The position numbers and the translations under genes are program-made. A stretch of 64,000 nucleotides of DNA from a virus (taxonomy: Duplodnaviria > Caudoviricetes): the IMG/VR virus record IMGVR_UViG_3300037455_000250, positions 1 to 64,000 of that record. One strand, 5' to 3'. Positions within the stretch are counted from its first letter, which is position 1; each line of letters begins with the position of its first letter. This document shows positions 43,132 to 53,019 of this stretch, piece by piece. The notes beneath the pieces are model-generated. The model was not told the DNA's origin. It saw only the letters and a program-made list of their open reading frames with translations, and ran no database searches.

Positions 43132-46100
43132 TTACATACCGTGTGAATATTCTGTAAACAGTTCTTCCCAAACTTCATCATTTCTTGCCACACTATCAAT
43201 AAACTGTAAGAGGTCAGTAATATCCGCCTCGCAATTCGTGTACTTGGCAAGTAAGACTGCCCCTGCCTCTCTCAAAGGATTAAGATGTGCTAATTTTTCC
43301 CTTGCTCGATTGTATTCGTCCACATAACACTTCAGGTCGAACGGGATACAATTTCTATATGCGCCTTCAAGTATTGTTTCCGCAATTTCGTCTGTATCAA
43401 GGTCATACCAAATATCGTTGGTAAAATCAATGTCGCTATATCCATCACAAGTGAAGAAGTCCGCATACTCATCATATTCCAGATTAATAAGGTCCCAAGG
43501 GTCCCAGTTTGCTAACTGGTCGTTGATGTTTTCCGCATTGTTCTCATATAAACGGTCATACCTGTTGTTATCTCTGATTTCGTTTCCCAATTCGAGTGCG
43601 TCCTCATTACTCATATAATCCAACGCATCCACAACAAACTCTTTTGCCTCTTCCCATAACTCCTCGAGTGTCTTAAATCTGCCATTTTCCTTCTTAATTT
43701 CGATGTTTTCCATAGTGCTGTCTCCTTCCTTATGCTACTTCCTGTAAGTTTAATAATGGTTCCATTTCTGCGGCGTCATATATTTCATATCCGCCTTCTT
43801 TCCATTCAATGTATGCCTCAATATCTCCGTCGTAATAACTTGCCAGATATCCGCTCTCGACAAGTGTAGATATAATATTTTTGCACACTATCGACCAATC
43901 ATCTGGGCTCGTATCAATCGAAACTCTTCCAATAACTCTCCAATCATTTACTGTCCAACCCTCACAGTCAGACCATACATCTAACCATACAACCTCGTAC
44001 TCTCGCATATTATTTCTCCTTCCATAAAAGTTTATAGACTTCTTCCATAATTGCTGGGATTACTTCCTTATTTATGCGTTTGTATTCGTCCTCATTCTTA
44101 ATGGTGTCTTTCGCAGGGTTAGTAGTATAGTGTGCTCCACCTATGGATAACATATCGGAATATGCCCTTGCGATATAGAAACTCCTCATCAACTCTACTA
44201 ATTGCCATGTTTCCTTATCTGTTAAAACGGTTTCGGTAAAGAACTCCGTGAAAGCGTCATATCCATTTTTATCGGGGTTCTTAAAGAACAGTCCGTCAAA
44301 GTGCTGGTGGCTTGCAATATCTCTTGACAGATGAGGTATTCGGTTGTTCGTGTACGTTTCAACATAGCCAAAGCCCCAATACCAGCCACAATCCCAACTT
44401 CCACTTTCGAGAAAATACTTAATACCGTCTTTGTCTGTTCCAAGTAAGAAACAATCCTTACCAAATTTGTGCATAACATATTTCTTCATGGGTTATTCCT
44501 CCTTAATCGTCATACGCCCAACCGGGTTCTACCTGAACTTCATATCCTTCTAATGACGCTTTTGGTCCATAGCATACCCACATCATTCCAAAACTTGCTC
44601 TATCCATTCCTCGTTCTATATAGTAATCTTCAATCCGATTAAATATTTCCTTTCCCACTTCAATCTTGGTGCAATCATAATGGTCAAATGATTTTCCTTC
44701 AATAGCGTCTGCCATCATCTCATAGAGGTCAACAATCCCACATTTTGCTAATTCGGGGTTCATAATCCAAGTTTCTTTTGTCTTTTCCATAATATTTTCC
44801 TCACAGTTCATATTCAATTTCCTCTATTCTTACATTGTCATAGCACGGAATACTGATAACTCCGTCCTCGTTCTTCTTGGTCAGGTGTTCTTTTATATAC
44901 TTCTTTGCCTCAGCCTCAGTTTCAAACCATTTCAGGTCCAGATGACTTTCTGTAAGTGAGGACTTAAATACATATATCTTGTATTTATTCCTCATTGTGT
45001 AGAGATATTTAGGTTCTCTACCAATTCCATCTTTCTTTGTTTCGTCATATACAAAGTAATCTACCTTGATAACATAGTATTTTGCCATTATTCTTCACCT
45101 TCTTCCTCAACAATATTTGCAACAAGAACTCCGGTCTCACCTACAATAGCTCTGACTTCATCACACGCGGCAAATTTAGCGTCCAGTAACGCTTTTGCTC
45201 TCTTTTCCACATCACTCTCAGGAATTTCCGCAATTTCAATTTCAGGATAAAATGTTCCGAAAGGCTCTCTTCCCTTCTTTCTATCCGTTGTTGTCTTGTA
45301 ATACTTAACCTCAAACTTTGCCATAATTCTTTCTCCTTTCATTATTGGCTTGCGTTTTCGCTTTTCGCTACACTAATTATAGACAGGTAATTATTACTAA
45401 ATCATCAATACCTTGTGAATATTTTGTAAACAAACTATGACGGTTGTAGACACACTATCATATAGATATGGTAGTTTATTTATATTCGTCAAGGACAACC
45501 TCTTCCCATAACCGCACATTCTCACAGTATTCATCTACTTCCAAAAAATACGGTTTATAATACTCGGTATAATCATAACTTCCTATTACAATTAACTTTC
45601 CTTCTTCGTCCTCAATCATTATCGGATAATTTAATTGGTAGAACTGTCCGAGTGCATACAGTTTTCCCTTATGCCTAAAGTAAATTAAATCGCCACAGGG
45701 CTCGGCATAATCGAATAGTTGATGGCGTTTGGTAACATACGTGCAGTTTATCTTTATCCATCGGCTTGCTTTGATGTACCCATATTTAGGATTAGGTTCT
45801 TTCGGAATATAAATTTTAGCCATGATGCTTTCTCCTTTCTGTTGCAGGGCTTGTTGTATTGTCTCCTCTAAAGTTAGGTCCAAATACGCGGTGACGCGGA
45901 AATTCTTTTTCATCTATTTCCCGTATATCTCCTTTTACTTTAACCCACGGGTTTACTTCCCCGAGTGTAAACTCTCTTGCCAAGGTTTTATTCGGGGCTT
46001 CCACATAATACCACTTTTTTCCCCAATTCGGGTCATAAATTGGCACGGCAAAACATTTCCACTGTGAATATGGAATACTCCAATACTTCTTCAACAACTC

Positions 46101-49100
46101 TTTACTTGGCATACAGGTCAATCTCCTTTTCCAATCGAATTTCAACCAATTCATCTTTCTTGTGGTCATATCGGGTGAAAATCATCCTTCCCGGCTCACT
46201 CTCCGTTGCCTCATATTCATAGCCTATGGCTTTAATTGTGCTGATGGCATACTGCAATTTACTGTCCTCAAATTCTGTTTGGTTCAGAACTTTAGGATAT
46301 AGTCCAGATAATTTCCAAGTCGTGCAACTCCACATATTATTCTCCTTTCTTTTATGACGGTTGTAGATTAGAACGGTAATAGAAGTTCTCCAATCTCTCT
46401 TCCAAGAATGTCCATTCTGTATAATGGGTCGTGTCCTTTTGCTTGTCGTACTGTTATGCGGTGCGGGCACGTACTATCCTCGTGACGAGCATACCAATAA
46501 TTTTTTCCGTTAATCGTCTTTTTGTAAATTAGATAGTGGTCACGGTACTCAATAAATTTCATATCCTCGTTCATAATCTCACCTTCTCTCTTACAGGAAA
46601 AAGTCATTTTGGAAATAACTGTCTGCCATATCGTGGGCGTATTCCTCTGGGTCAGTATCAATCTCATCTTCGTGCGCCAACGCCCACTCATATTCCTCGT
46701 TATAAATTCTTTCCCATTCGTCGGCTATCTGTTCTCCGTACGATTTAACATCCTCACGGTAAACACATCTTGCCTCAGGATAGTTTAATCGTATCTCGTT
46801 AATCCGCATTTCCACAAAACTATCAAGATGTTCACCCATAGCCTCAACCGCTTTAGCCTCGATAGTATCCGCAATAACTTCCGAGCCACATTCGTCTATC
46901 AAAACAATCTGTACCTTCATATTATTCTTCCTCGCTTTCACATATAATTTCCACAATTTCTATTCCATCGTAGAGTAGGGAGAATGTCTCCCGCACATCA
47001 TCTTCATCATATCCATCAATAAGGGTTTGACCTAACAGTTCAGGATGGGCGTAATCCGTGTGTATCACGGTGTAAAGTTTCTTAATTCCCATATTCATTC
47101 CTCCTCATTGTTATAGCAGATAACCATACGACCATCCGCAAGTGTGTATAAGTCAGTGACTTCCTCTTCCTGAATTTCATCAAACAGGTCTGTCATTTTG
47201 AAGTCGCTAACCTCTCCCTCAAACCTCTCTCCAGAGTCCTCATCATTAATAAAGGCGTCATTCTGGACAATGATATTAAAATTCATATTGTCCATCCTGT
47301 ATAACAAATCATAAATAGTCCACATATTGTTCTTCCTCACTTTCTCCCCGTATAGTCGATAGGACAACTCTTTGACGGTTGTAGATTTATTCGAGTGTTA
47401 CTCCTAACTTGTCGGCTAATCTATCTAATTTGATGTTCATTCGGTCGGTAAAGTCGGTTATCTCTTGTATCATATAGGCTACTGCCTCTTCTTCTTCGTG
47501 ACAAGCGTGGATAAACGCATCTTCGGGGCACTGGAAGTAGTGACCTTGTCCCCAATACATCAGTCGGTCTGTGTTTTCATCACTGTTATCAGGACGTCGC
47601 TCTCCCTTAACTCCTTTTATTCGAGGTGACCAACACGCTATCCATTGATAATCACCATTTCTTTCCCATCTCACTACTGCATAATCGGATAAAGGAAATA
47701 CCTTAAGAACTTTAACTGTCTGTGCCATATTATTCCTCCTCTCTGTTGTCCCAGATAAACGCTAACTGGACGGCTTTAATTATCACAAGAATAATTCCTA
47801 CAAACCAAGCGATAACTTCAGGCTGCATTGTTTGGTTCCTCCTTTAAAGTAAAATATCATCAAGGTAATCAGGTTCAAGGTCATATCCTGCAAGGATATC
47901 TTCTATCTCCTCACTGCCTTCAAGGATATCTTCTAAGTCCATTGTTGCGAGTACTCCATTAATTTCTGATTTAAGGATACGGTATTCGTCCTTTGCAACC
48001 TCTTCACTCATCCCATCTCTTTCCATAAAAATCTTGATAATTCTGTTCATACTGTTCTCCTTTCCTTTTTGAACTTTGTAGATTTGTTGTTTTATGCCTC
48101 TGAAAGTATTTCTCCATCAAGAGTTGCTATGGTTCTAAGTCCCGTTCCTTGATACGCAAACGGCATTCCAACAATCTCCTCAACTGCTTTCCCAGCGGCT
48201 AACCATCTGTTGTGTTCCTCTTCTGACTTCGGGCAGAGATATAAATCCTGATATACTTTCTCAGGTATCTCAATTATTTCTTCCTTGCAAATAGTGACTT
48301 TAACCTGTATCATATTCTTACCTCACTTTCGTAATAATTCCATCTTCGAGTGTTACACTTGCGTACCATCTATGCGGTTCGGGGTAGTGCGGTCCCTCCA
48401 CACAAACTGTTCCATTACTCGGCTCGTTCCCACCGAACGGTCCTGGCTGATAAACTCTCACCTTCTGTCCATTGGCAACGGCCTCCTTGAGTGCTTTCTT
48501 GGTCTTGAAGTTGATTGTGGTATACATATTCAGTCCTCCTTCTTAAATCTCTTCGTTAGCAAGTATTTCCTTATAGGTCATAATAAGCACTTCGTCAGTG
48601 CAGGCTCTAATCCAATCCTCACTCCAACCTCTCTTACGCAACTCCTGTCTGATACATTCCATCACCAGCATATTAATTCTCCTTTCTTTCAAACCAAATT
48701 TCTTCCATTACGTTCTCAAAATCTTCTAACATCGGGTATCACCTCACTCTCTTTCTTCAACCGGCAGGTATTCCATTGTTATTTTTCTGGTTTTCTGTAA
48801 ATCTTCTACGTCTCCGTAGGCATAAATTCTATCCACTTTGTACTGTCCATCTGGGTTAAGGATGTTGTAAACCCTCATCACGTTGGGCAATTCTTCTGGT
48901 GTGGTATCTAATTTCAAGATTTCCGCAGTCGCAAGGTTGATAACCTCGATTGTCATCCTTACGGTCTTAACTCTACCGAACATTGTCATATTCTTTCTCC
49001 TTTCACTTGACTGGTGTAGATTTAGTTTTTATTCAATCAAGCACACAGACTATTCGCACGGAAGGGTATCTATTTAGAACTCGTTGGGATCGGTGTCGTA

Positions 49101-49594
49101 TTCCCAATCATATGTTCCGTGATAGCGGTTCTGCTCTTCAAGGAACTCCAATCTTTCTTCTTCTTCAATGTGGTTGTAGGCGTCTTCAATGTCGATAGCG
49201 GATAGCGGACAACGCATTTCATCTAATCTTCTTTGGCACTCTGCCAGAACTTTCTCAATTTTTGTCATAGGTCACTTTCCTCCGAATGTATGTATCGTGT
49301 TAAACCAGCGGACAAATTCTGCCCCGTATAATTCTCTGCAAATTCTAAAACCGAACTTTTCGTACTGGCTTGCGTAGTATTTAGCCATATCTTTAGTCCT
49401 CCTTATTAGTAATTAAGTGATAGGATTGCTCTCATATAGTCTTCCGCACAGTGGATTCCCATATCCAAATCAAATCTTCCTTCGGCTTTGTACTTTTCAT
49501 ATTCTTGTGTCATTTCTTGATAACCCTCATCGGTTATGATTGCGGTACAGGATGCGCCCTGTCTATAAGAATAATATTTAATCTTGTGGTCCAT
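43132..49594 (-). CDS. Array of about 25 small hypothetical genes (e.g. 43132-43713, 43730-44008, 44010-44489, 44503-44817, 44801-45088, 45088-45342, 47387-47728, 47844-48050, 48092-48313, 48318-48527, 48744-48989, 49074-49268, 49272-49388, 49406-49594)
   Basis: Co-oriented ORFs, most with GGAGG/AAGGAG/GTGAGG SD sites; no function recognised. Confidence 0.65.
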
Positions 49595-49644
49595 TTTAAT
49601 TTCCCCCTTTCTTAGGTGCGAATAATCTGTATTCTTGATTGACT
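49031..49644. repeat. Imperfect 34-bp inverted repeat (49031-49064 / 49611-49644)
   Basis: 28/34 identical. Confidence 0.8.
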
Positions 49645-49645
49645 T

Positions 49646-50261
49646 CAGGCGTGTTTTGCGGACACTTACTAATGCGTGTTATTTATTTATGCTATGAACT
49701 CTGTAGATGCGAGTTCGTTTCGGCTTGTGTTATGCGGGAGCATTTTCTTTTGTAATCTGACGGAAGACGATTTCGGGCTTGTCTTTCTTCTTGGGAGCGG
49801 CTGCAGGTTTCTTGCTTTCGGCTTTCTTATCTGCGGGCTTCTTTTCGGCGGGTTTCTTCTTGTCAGGACGTTCCTTGACTGTGGCAAACTGGACATCTTT
49901 CAGGTTGTCTTTCAGGAACTTCTTGATAGCGTCAACTGCGGTCTCTTTTTCGCCAACTTTGATAAGTTTCATATACTCGTAATCGTCGGGATTCTTCTCG
50001 AGGTCGGGCTTTAACTTCACGCCCTCAAGGTTCTTAAAAGTGTCATTCCAGTTTTTGTGCAGGTAAACGTGTGCTGTGGACGAATTTGCCTTCTTATATG
50101 CGAAAACAATTTGCTTGTCCTCAGTATAGAAACGGAATGTGGTGTTCTGTGCAAAAATCTTAATTTTCATGGTAAGTTCCTCCTTATGAACTAAAATATT
50201 ATTGTGTTTGGGTGGGTGCATAAATAATACACGCATAGTAAGTATCTCCAAAACACGCCTG
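49646..50261. repeat. Imperfect 44/47-bp inverted repeat (49646-49692 / 50218-50261)
   Basis: 13-bp perfect outer block; few mismatches and small indels inside. Confidence 0.85.
49730..50170 (-). CDS. Lys-rich protein (146 aa), first clear gene of the leftward arm
   Basis: AAGGAGG SD; KKP-rich C-terminal tail. Confidence 0.75.
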   Translation of the reverse strand: MKIKIFAQNTTFRFYTEDKQIVFAYKKANSSTAHVYLHKNWNDTFKNLEGVKLKPDLEKNPDDYEYMKLIKVGEKETAVDAIKKFLKDNLKDVQFATVKERPDKKKPAEKKPADKKAESKKPAAAPKKKDKPEIVFRQITKENAPA

Positions 50262-50549
50262 TTTTTGCGGTAGAAGAACCGGACGCCATCTCGTTTTACG
50301 CGATACTCTCGTATCTCCCATTCAGAGCCTCTCCTGGTTGAGGGTTATATGCTATTTTCTTCTGGACTTTATTGGGGGTGCGAGCCCTACTGAGGTGCCA
50401 TACTAAGATAGTCAGTTACTCCGAGCGACGTATATTCAGTTGTACTTTTTATTATTCTTATCTTCTTGCTTACATCACTTCTTTCTGTATCTGTATTTCA
50501 ATCTTGCTTTTGTGCTTGATTGATGGCTTCAGTCTAACACTGCAAAAAT

Positions 50550-51000
50550 TACGTTTCTGTTAATAAAATATGAATTTTTAACGTTTAACGATAAATTTTC
50601 ACGATTTTTGTTAATCATTTATGAACAAAAAATTAAGTCAAGAATTTTTTAACAATTTTCTTTGACATTTATTGTTTCCCAATAAAAATTTGTTGTTTTA
50701 CGATATGAATATTTATGCAATTTGATTTATAATATTGTATTCTTTTATGCAATGTTTTATCGTTTTTCGATAAATAAATGAATATTCACTGTATAATGTC
50801 AAATAAAATTTATATGTAAATTTTTTGTAAACTTTATCAGACTAAAGAAAATATTAACAAACTGTTAAAATCAATCTCTTTTGTGTAAACGAATATGAAT
50901 TATTTGTGTCATATATTATGGAATTGTAAAAAGTATCAACCACCGTGTTTTTATATCATGTTTTTGTTGTGCTATTTGTCAAGTATATTTACTTTACAGG
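50550..51000. promoter_or_regulatory. Very AT-rich non-coding divergent control region
   Basis: No credible ORF; many A/T tracts and TTGAC/GTCAA hexamers on both strands. Confidence 0.6.
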
Positions 51001-51179
51001 GCTAATTCGAGTACCAAGCGGGATCTCCTTTGCTCCAGACCGTTTCTTATATTAGCATAGTCTGGCCCTCTCCTACGCGAGGGACACGCAGCCAGAGCGT
51101 TCCAGCCCTATATTGACACGTGAGCAAAACAGAAAACAGATGGCGGGGTGGCGTGGCTGAGCTACGGAGAATTACACGT

Positions 51180-51367
51180 GGACTGTTGTAGATAAAGTAT
51201 GCGATAACGCTGGATATACGTAACCATACATAAAAGTAAGCTGAATGACCTGCTGGATAAACGGAATGAGGACGTGTTTCTGGACGCGTCCTAGGACAGG
51301 AAAAACAAAAATAAAATAGATTTTCAAAGTGGTTGTCTGATTTATGTGGGACTGTTGTAGATAAAGT
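51180..51367 (+). repeat. 19-bp direct repeat GGACTGTTGTAGATAAAGT x2
   Basis: Exact copies at 51180-51198 and 51349-51367. Confidence 0.85.
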
Positions 51368-51377
51368 GTTCAAAGTA

Positions 51378-51406
51378 TTGACTTATATATAGGCAGATGT
51401 TATTTT
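51378..51406 (+). promoter_or_regulatory. Promoter of the morphogenesis arm
   Basis: TTGACT-17-TATTTT with extended TG. Confidence 0.6.
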
Positions 51407-51540
51407 AAGTGTATAAACAAGATATTCATTGTATCGGGGGTCTCTGAAATGGTCCTGAGGACGAGTAAGAACGACGGGTGATTAACAGTTTATCTTATTT
51501 ATATTAGAAAGACAGACAATTAAATATGCGAGGTGTATGT

Positions 51541-52136: not shown

Positions 52137-52652
52137 ATGGCACGAGGAAAAAGTGAAGGCAACGCAAAAGGACAAGAGTATAAAATGTCTGTCCGTGAAC
52201 AGAAATTCGTATTGTTTTATCTGGAACACGGTGACGCTACCAAAGCAGTAGTTGACGCCAAATTTAATACTAACGCTCCTAAACAATATGGTAAGAAACT
52301 TCTGGCAAAGCCGAAGATACAAAGAGAGATTGCCAAACAGTGGGAACTGTTTCAAAATGAACGAATTGCAGGCTCACAAGAAATTATGGGCTTTTATACT
52401 GCCGTTATGAGAGGTCAAGTTAAAGACCAATTCGGATTAGAGGCAACTCTCGCAGATAGATTAAAGGCAACTGACTCCCTTGCTAAAAGACAGATTGACG
52501 CCCAGACACTGGCGCAAAAGGGAATTGATAATCAAGTTACGATTAAACTTTGTTGGGATAGAGATAATACAGTTCAAGAGCCCGATATACCTGTAATTGA
52601 TGATGATTACATAGATGATATTCCTGAAGAGGGCGAAGATGGCAACGAGTAA
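52137..52652 (+). CDS. terS: Terminase small subunit
   Basis: REQKFVLFYL..DATKA, LLAKPKI, DRLKA..LAKR. Confidence 0.85.
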   Translation: MARGKSEGNAKGQEYKMSVREQKFVLFYLEHGDATKAVVDAKFNTNAPKQYGKKLLAKPKIQREIAKQWELFQNERIAGSQEIMGFYTAVMRGQVKDQFGLEATLADRLKATDSLAKRQIDAQTLAQKGIDNQVTIKLCWDRDNTVQEPDIPVIDDDYIDDIPEEGEDGNE

Positions 52653-53019
52653 ATGGTTACAAATTGATGGCGTAGAGTATCAAGTGCCAATTGTTGACTT
52701 GCAGAGAAAAGGAGACATTCTTGACCTTACTGCAAATCGTACAGAGGACGGTGTTCTTCATAGAGATGTTATAGGCACATACTATAACTATACACTTAAT
52801 ATTGGTCGTGTACGTGACCAGAGTGTAAATGAGGCACTTTGGTGGGCATTAACTGCTCCTGTAGCAAGCCATCAAGTTCAGTTACCGTATCAACCTGAGC
52901 CTTTTGAAGGATATTTTGGTAGTTGCAAAGATAACATTACGTTGATAGACGCAAACGGACAAAAAACGAAAGGACTGTCTTTTAACTTAATCGCTACAAG
53001 ACCCTCACGCAATGCCTGA
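52639..53019 (+). CDS. Distal-tail (Dit)-like protein located between terS and terL
   Basis: RTEDGVLHRDVIGTYYNY..LTAPVASH...LSFNLIA; pattern I recognise from proteins that normally follow tape measure genes. Confidence 0.6.
   Translation: MATSKWLQIDGVEYQVPIVDLQRKGDILDLTANRTEDGVLHRDVIGTYYNYTLNIGRVRDQSVNEALWWALTAPVASHQVQLPYQPEPFEGYFGSCKDNITLIDANGQKTKGLSFNLIATRPSRNA

Follow-up and report, generated by a model that had tools for sequence, protein, structure and literature searches.

Long-range inverted repeats heading the leftward gene block of a tailed phage are candidate RNase III stalks of an early mRNA

The window analysed here is a stretch of 64,000 nt (positions 1 to 64,000) of the Caudoviricetes record IMGVR_UViG_3300037455_000250, a 72,967-bp IMG/VR virus genome classified as complete by CheckV. 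The only leftward gene block of this rumen phage (~40.7-50.2 kb) comprises about thirty small genes, mostly orphans, and is headed by two adjacent long-range inverted repeats, hereafter termed stalk 1 and stalk 2, each of which encloses genes between its arms. To the right of the stalks lies a 1.26-kb AT-rich non-coding spacer (50262-51525), and past this spacer a rightward operon opens with a small membrane protein, terS and terL. An ORF of 134 aa (52615-53019; PHROG 1194) is situated between terS and terL and overlaps both. The ends of the record carry imperfect direct repeats (587-815 versus 72739-72967, 94%; 1-246 versus 72171-72416, 78%). These repeats point to circular permutation or terminal redundancy of the genome and to assembly from a mixed population. 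No match to the region came from a distant blastn search of 50,697 GenBank phages, and a single near-identical contig of 30.8 kb was found in Logan (SRR12681659). The features of the locus are listed below in the direction of leftward transcription.

50982-50955, 50820-50793 and 50641-50614, minus strand: three sigma-70-like leftward promoter candidates upstream of the stalk 1 5' arm, as consensus matches only
50512-50524, minus strand: 13-nt leader sequence, a perfect copy of stalk 2 5' arm sequence and complementary to the outer end of the stalk 2 3' arm
50314-50470, minus strand: non-coding leader upstream of stalk 1, 83% conserved, in the relative L040 only (L040 positions 1867-2026)
50218-50261, minus strand: 5' arm of stalk 1 on the transcript, upstream of the P0001 gene, pairing with 49646-49692
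50179-50185, minus strand: Shine-Dalgarno (SD) sequence AAGGAGG of P0001, read from the sequence, in the loop 32 nt past the 5' arm
49730-50170, minus strand: P0001 gene (146 aa, Lys-rich tail), the single ORF in the stalk 1 loop
49696-49716, minus strand: local 3'-UTR hairpin GAACUC / GAGUUC, located past the P0001 stop codon and ahead of the 3' arm, with one RTCTACA-N4-TC motif
49646-49692, minus strand: 3' arm of stalk 1, beginning 37 nt past the P0001 stop codon
49611-49642, minus strand: 5' arm of stalk 2, 3 nt past stalk 1, with an extension that reaches the SD of the next gene
49074-49594, minus strand: three small genes (62, 38 and 64 aa) in the stalk 2 loop, with no Pfam or PHROG family match
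49033-49064, minus strand: 3' arm of stalk 2 (27 Watson-Crick and 2 G-U pairs of 32)

The arms of stalk 1 (47 nt and 44 nt) align with 41 matches, 3 substitutions and 3 one-base indels (87% identity), and as RNA they form 41 Watson-Crick pairs and one G-U pair with three one-base bulges around a loop of 525 nt. This agrees with the duplex of about 40 bp reported in a preliminary description of the locus, although the 44/47 given in its title overstated the identity, which the alignment sets at 41/47. The same description had noted that exactly one gene is enclosed with its SD inside, and the ORF and the AAGGAGG motif indeed both lie within the loop. In a self-comparison of the whole genome, stalk 1 was the top inverted repeat (48.2 bits, E 1.7e-5) and stalk 2, only 3 nt away, the second best. 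When the minus strand was folded as RNA, both stalks were present in the MFE as well as in the centroid structure. The stalk 1 cassette alone folded with a z-score of -5.3 compared to shuffles, and the duplex of the 5' flank with the 3' flank of the P0001 gene reached z = -6.8.

The SD region of the 62-aa gene is paired within the extension of stalk 2. The leader 13-mer at 50512-50524 is the sole 13-mer match of the stalk 2 3' arm elsewhere in the genome. Together with CTGAAG it constitutes an ~18-nt direct repeat of the stalk 1/stalk 2 junction (49630-49648), which could provide an alternative outer pairing or represent the trace of an insertion of leader plus cassette 1. The non-coding leader (50314-50470) had no match in Rfam, and a search of the 44-56 kb region with the Rfam families at E <= 1 returned nothing.

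P0001 is predicted to consist of a folded N-terminal part of ~100 aa and a disordered C-terminal tail of 45 residues rich in Lys, Pro and Ala. It matched no Pfam or PHROG family, had no relative in the IMG/VR protein search and nothing usable in the ESM Atlas, and matched only itself among 5.8 billion proteins; its AlphaFold model (mean pLDDT 64) had no PDB match by Foldseek at E <= 0.001. The first genes of the window and of the related loci L040 and L041 are homologous (24-33% identity) and have a C-terminal KPE(I/L)VF...A motif in common. On the basis of these searches, P0001 is without detectable relatives outside this phage group.

The genes of the block are co-oriented, promoter-like sites lie upstream of the stalks, and a consensus scan detected no terminator-like site between the promoter candidates and the stalks. 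Since the promoter-like matches upstream of the stalks are no more numerous than expected from shuffles, we only infer that both arms of a stalk are transcribed together. Judged by promoter-like sites and gene layout, the enclosed genes would also be the first to be expressed. Within 43859-51362 the motif GA-N4-TGTAGAY occurs in 10 copies compared to 1.24 expected; nine of them are on the plus strand (e.g. at 49009, 49696, 51181 and 51350), which corresponds to RTCTACA-N4-TC when the leftward operon and the spacer upstream of it are read in the sense direction. In the distant loci L097, L090 and L080 the same motif, as ATCTACAAAGTTC/ATCTACAAAGTCA, is found ~10 nt ahead of the SD of the post-stalk gene. 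The motif may be a phage-specific promoter or a signal for RNA processing or RNA binding.

To place the stalks in a wider context, about 115 related loci were gathered from IMG/VR, JGI metagenomes, ENA and Logan with terL, the membrane protein and small-protein cluster mates as anchors; judged by sample numbers, these loci appear to be mostly from rumen samples. The early genes are hypervariable, as only one of 12 had a homologue in the terL-anchored IMG/VR loci (L004-L039). Clean gene-enclosing stalks were found in ~10 of the 43 distinct loci with enough upstream sequence, and these represent six lineages. The most extensive array, in L042, consists of five consecutive stalks of 25-32 bp with one or two small genes each, followed by an FtsK-like gene; the gaps between its neighbouring arms are 2, 0 and 4 nt, with an overlap of 2 nt at the last junction. 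Three of these five stalks are visible in L007, which is 98% identical to L042. The tandem-stalk architecture put forward in the preliminary description was thus encountered again among relatives, and the search of relatives that it had proposed yielded stalks with different arms around different cargo. L040 and L041 have one stalk each, around the first early gene, and such a stalk is also present in the much more distant L080 and in the lineage of L090, L097, L098 and L119. In contrast, the close relative L039 (85% terL identity) has no first-gene stalk (z = +0.9). The stalk-less L039 and the proportion of ~10 in 43 loci imply that the feature is dispensable.

The arm sequences are private to each stalk, and no two stalks have arm sequence in common. 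Still, in the window, L040, L041 and L042 the 3' arm starts 37-39 nt past the stop codon, behind a local hairpin. The same offset combined with unrelated arms implies that the position of the stalk is conserved and its arm sequence is not. All 12 stalks examined span 21-47 bp, i.e. at least about two helical turns (~20-22 bp). The loops measure 317-588 nt, and start codons lie 17-59 nt and stop codons 9-39 nt from the stem base. No arm overlaps an ORF; the intergenic gaps in which the arms lie are almost completely taken up by them and far exceed the remaining gaps of the operon in length.

The comparison of L040 and L041 bears on the origin of the arms. Across the end of the first gene and its 3'-UTR, right to the edge of the 3' arms, the two loci have 86% identity, while the arms themselves are unrelated, which makes slow compensatory drift a poor explanation. 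Moreover, a 3'-UTR segment with the sequence GCATAAAT, common to the window, L040 and L041, is used for the inner 10 bp of the window stem. These patterns and the leader copy of stalk 2 sequence hint at arms being replaced or extended by events at the DNA level, e.g. recombination or small inverted duplications. As the breakpoints do not simply match the cassette borders, we regard a portable cassette as a hypothesis rather than a finding.

The level at which the stalks are selected, RNA or DNA, was assessed from the mismatches between the arms. In an alignment of nine stalks in which G-U and A-C were penalised equally and G-U received no bonus, the transition mismatches on the sense strand comprised 15 G-U and 4 A-C (one-sided p = 0.01), and with L080 and L097 added the ratio was 17:4 (p = 0.004). 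The ratio expected from arm composition is 1.2:1, while the composition of the sense-strand loops predicts the opposite bias (0.56:1). A recount for the two stalks of the window agreed with the earlier observation that, read on the transcribed strand, G-U accounts for three of their four transition mismatches. As RNA, each of the 12 stalks is more stable in the sense than in the antisense orientation, the mean difference being 4.5 kcal/mol (Wilcoxon p = 2e-4). Between L090 and L097/L098/L119, which are 92% identical overall, the single stalk difference turns a G-C into a G-U pair. Furthermore, as the arm pairs are private, only base pairing can recognise the two members of a pair; a common protein site is lacking. 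The sense-strand G-U bias, the stability of 12 out of 12 stalks in the sense orientation, the private-arm stalks at the same offset, the intergenic position of the arms and the lack of a recombinase together favour, on statistical grounds, selection of the structure in the transcript. This extends the earlier preference for RNA pairing over DNA inversion, which had been drawn from the two stalks of the window.

Some observations weaken this reading. The nearly identical stalks available (L007/L042 and the L090 group) include no double compensatory change, and the arms of L007 and L042 are identical, which makes their comparison uninformative in this respect. The MFE fold of antisense L042 RNA also forms all five stems, which counts against selection at the RNA level. 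In addition, the G-U excess could in part result from C-to-T deamination of the non-template strand, and G-T, the least destabilising mismatch in single-stranded DNA, is also tolerated there.

We consider it probable, at roughly 60%, that the stalks are long-range helices of the early mRNA which are cut by host RNase III into messages with paired ends. The two arms would represent the flanks of such a helix in a leftward early polycistronic mRNA: once transcribed, the 3' arm would pair with the 5' arm and thereby close the Lys-rich gene and its ribosome-binding site into a loop of ~525 nt on a stem of ~44 bp, and the next stem, beginning 3 nt further on, would close the following three genes. 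Bacterial RNase III requires roughly two helical turns of duplex. As the stems exceed this length, cleavage by host RNase III within each of them would be the most likely outcome; RNase III and dsRNA-binding domains are both missing from the phage genome, so the host enzyme would have to act. The early polycistronic RNA would in this way yield messages of one to three cistrons, each with its 5' end still paired to its 3' end in the remaining stem stub. Exonucleases acting from either end would attack such paired termini poorly, and each message would be insulated from neighbouring sequence. Joint transcription of the arms, cleavage and message stabilisation are thus proposed steps, built upon the complementarity of the arms, its recurrence in relatives and the sense-strand bias. 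The preliminary description had also raised the possibility of circularised mRNAs; this found no support, since the genome encodes neither RtcB nor an RNA ligase.

In the main variant of this reading, the helix might form in the mRNA and remain uncut, acting as a clamp that protects the ends, insulates the folding of the cistron, aids ribosome recycling or re-initiation between stop and start codons or, in the case of stalk 2, masks the SD as in icaR. All structural evidence fits this possibility equally well, and the pairing of the stalk 2 extension with the SD region of the 62-aa gene as well as the closeness of start and stop codons to the stem base (17-59 nt and 9-39 nt) are in line with it. 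However, the SD of stalk 1 lies outside the stem. RNase III is present in nearly all bacteria, and as near-perfect or perfect duplexes of 25-47 bp are canonical substrates of this enzyme, their escape from cleavage is hard to picture; we therefore judge an uncut clamp to be unlikely. Similarly low is the probability we assign to the stalks being features of the DNA, i.e. scars or tools of cassette insertion or exchange (MITE-like elements or inverted duplications from template switching) or sites of single-stranded DNA pairing with no role in RNA. The early region is a fine-scale mosaic, the arms of L040 and L041 differ beside 86% identical sequence, the ~18-nt direct repeat flanks the leader and cassette 1, and stalks are patchy among relatives, all of which would suit such an origin. 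Yet private arms offer a transposase or recombinase no common terminal sequence, the genome contains no further copy of an arm and a search of IMG/VR with an arm pattern was empty. The 0-4 nt between abutting arms leave no space for target-site duplications, and additional copies with the same terminal repeats, as typical of MITE or IS elements, were not found. Finally, neither a transposase signature nor any encoded recombinase was detected in the genome, and the sense bias of mismatches and stability would be unexpected for features of double-stranded DNA.

A gene-sized segment bracketed by inverted repeats, with several such segments adjacent to each other, also resembles an invertible DNA switch, be it a single phase-variable segment or a shufflon-like array. 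The lack of a recombinase noted before for the window extends to the whole 73-kb genome, in which no match to the serine or tyrosine recombinase families (PF00239, PF00589) was found. Shufflon and invertase sites have one common core, whereas the arms of the stalks are imperfect (87-96%) and each pair is different; neither a nearby recombinase nor a common core was thus identified. Moreover, inverted genes would be antisense to the one side from which a promoter could serve them, and all independent assemblies display one and the same orientation. We consider inversion very improbable. An integron gene cassette with an attC site was rejected as well, given that no tyrosine recombinase is encoded and the gene lies between the two halves of the repeat. 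As the genome is a metagenome assembly, a chance match or an assembly artefact was also taken into account. This explanation is effectively refuted by the genome-wide E of 1.7e-5, the spacing of only 3 nt between the two best repeats, the occurrence of the same design in IMG/VR, ENA, Logan and JGI assemblies of different samples, and the imperfection of the arms, which distinguishes them from chimeric fold-backs.

Among known systems, the RNase III stalks of 16S and 23S rRNA precursors, to which the locus had been likened from the outset, are the closest structural parallel to the proposed mRNA helices. In both cases the immediate flanks pair over a long range, several stalks occur per precursor, the stem length suits RNase III and the product ends stay paired after cleavage, in the phage by prediction; the long-range complementarity of the flanks is evident in the fold of stalk 1 (z = -5.3). 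Unlike in rRNA operons, the cargo consists of one to three small phage genes with an SD in loops of 0.3-0.6 kb, up to five stalks abut (0-4 nt), their arms are not conserved and they are optional among close relatives. The closest functional analogue in phages is the processing of the T7/T3 early transcript (R0.3-R1.3), which host RNase III cuts between cistrons, leaving a stem that stabilises the 3' ends. The T7 sites are, however, local intercistronic hairpins with internal loops. Here, the stem joins sequences from beyond either end of a gene, with arms 317-588 nt apart and the cistron enclosed between them, so that one helix would hold both ends of a message.

In B. subtilis, RNase III cleaves mRNAs at long-range intramolecular duplexes that measure 10-36 bp, the paired cuts being up to 505 nt apart (PMC11780869). 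Their size range and loop lengths match those of the phage stalks (25-47 bp, 317-588 nt), but these targets are scattered in cellular mRNAs and tandem enclosure of whole cistrons is not described in that study. In Staphylococcus aureus, a duplex between the 5'-UTR and the 3'-UTR of icaR is an RNase III substrate (PMC3868564). As in the phage, the two untranslated regions of one mRNA pair; the icaR pairing is, however, short and masks the SD to repress translation, whereas the SD of stalk 1 is free in the loop rather than paired in the stem and an SD is reached only by the extension of stalk 2. In T4-type phages, PeSL cassettes, made up of an early promoter and a local stem-loop, provide homology for recombination (PMC2839356, PMC4122927). 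They too are regulatory motifs bordering small, fast-changing early genes in a hyperplastic region, but represent common direct repeats, while each cassette described here has its private inverted pair. Searches of the full-text literature found no description of arrays of gene-enclosing stems in phage mRNAs. This concurs with the initial statement that no phage equivalent had been described, although long-range duplexes have been published for B. subtilis (PMC11780869).

Should the stems indeed be cleaved and hold the message ends together, they would constitute a third design for the processing of operon transcripts, beside the local hairpins of T7 and the rRNA stalks. It would concern the least understood and fastest-changing phage genes, the pool of host-takeover and anti-defence functions, could explain how such genes are dependably expressed despite shuffling, and would provide synthetic operons with a natural insulator part that does not depend on sequence. 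A more far-reaching idea, which we regard as tentative and on balance doubtful, is that phages widely package their early messages in gene-enclosing stems, a strategy that would so far have escaped description. Each message, with its two ends clamped in one helix, would be released by host RNase III as an exonuclease-resistant molecule or even a host-ligated circle, and its insulation would allow genes to be swapped between phages with their expression undisturbed.

Several other, weaker repeats found in the related loci were set aside. Those in the more distant relatives L013, L020, L025, L033 and L035 are repeated palindromes resembling operators or terminators. The repeat of L022 and L023 spans a convergent gene junction: it is an inverted repeat of 33-36 nt (L022 2285-3308, L023 1706-3106) extending across the junction of rightward and leftward small genes and ~700 nt of non-coding sequence. 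The repeats in L067 and L095 are nested or multi-copy and promoter-like; with 58-86 nt and TTGACA/TATAAT elements (L095 29-1948, L067 1482-2596) they are of a different kind from the private stalks. In L090 (1758-1789 / 2379-2410), as in L097, L098 and L119, both arms have a local hairpin at their end within the long-range stem (CAGUC-UUUU-GACUG in one, CAGGC-GAAA-GCCUG in the other), and the mutual differences compensate within each hairpin. The structure in this group is a four-way junction and not a simple stalk.
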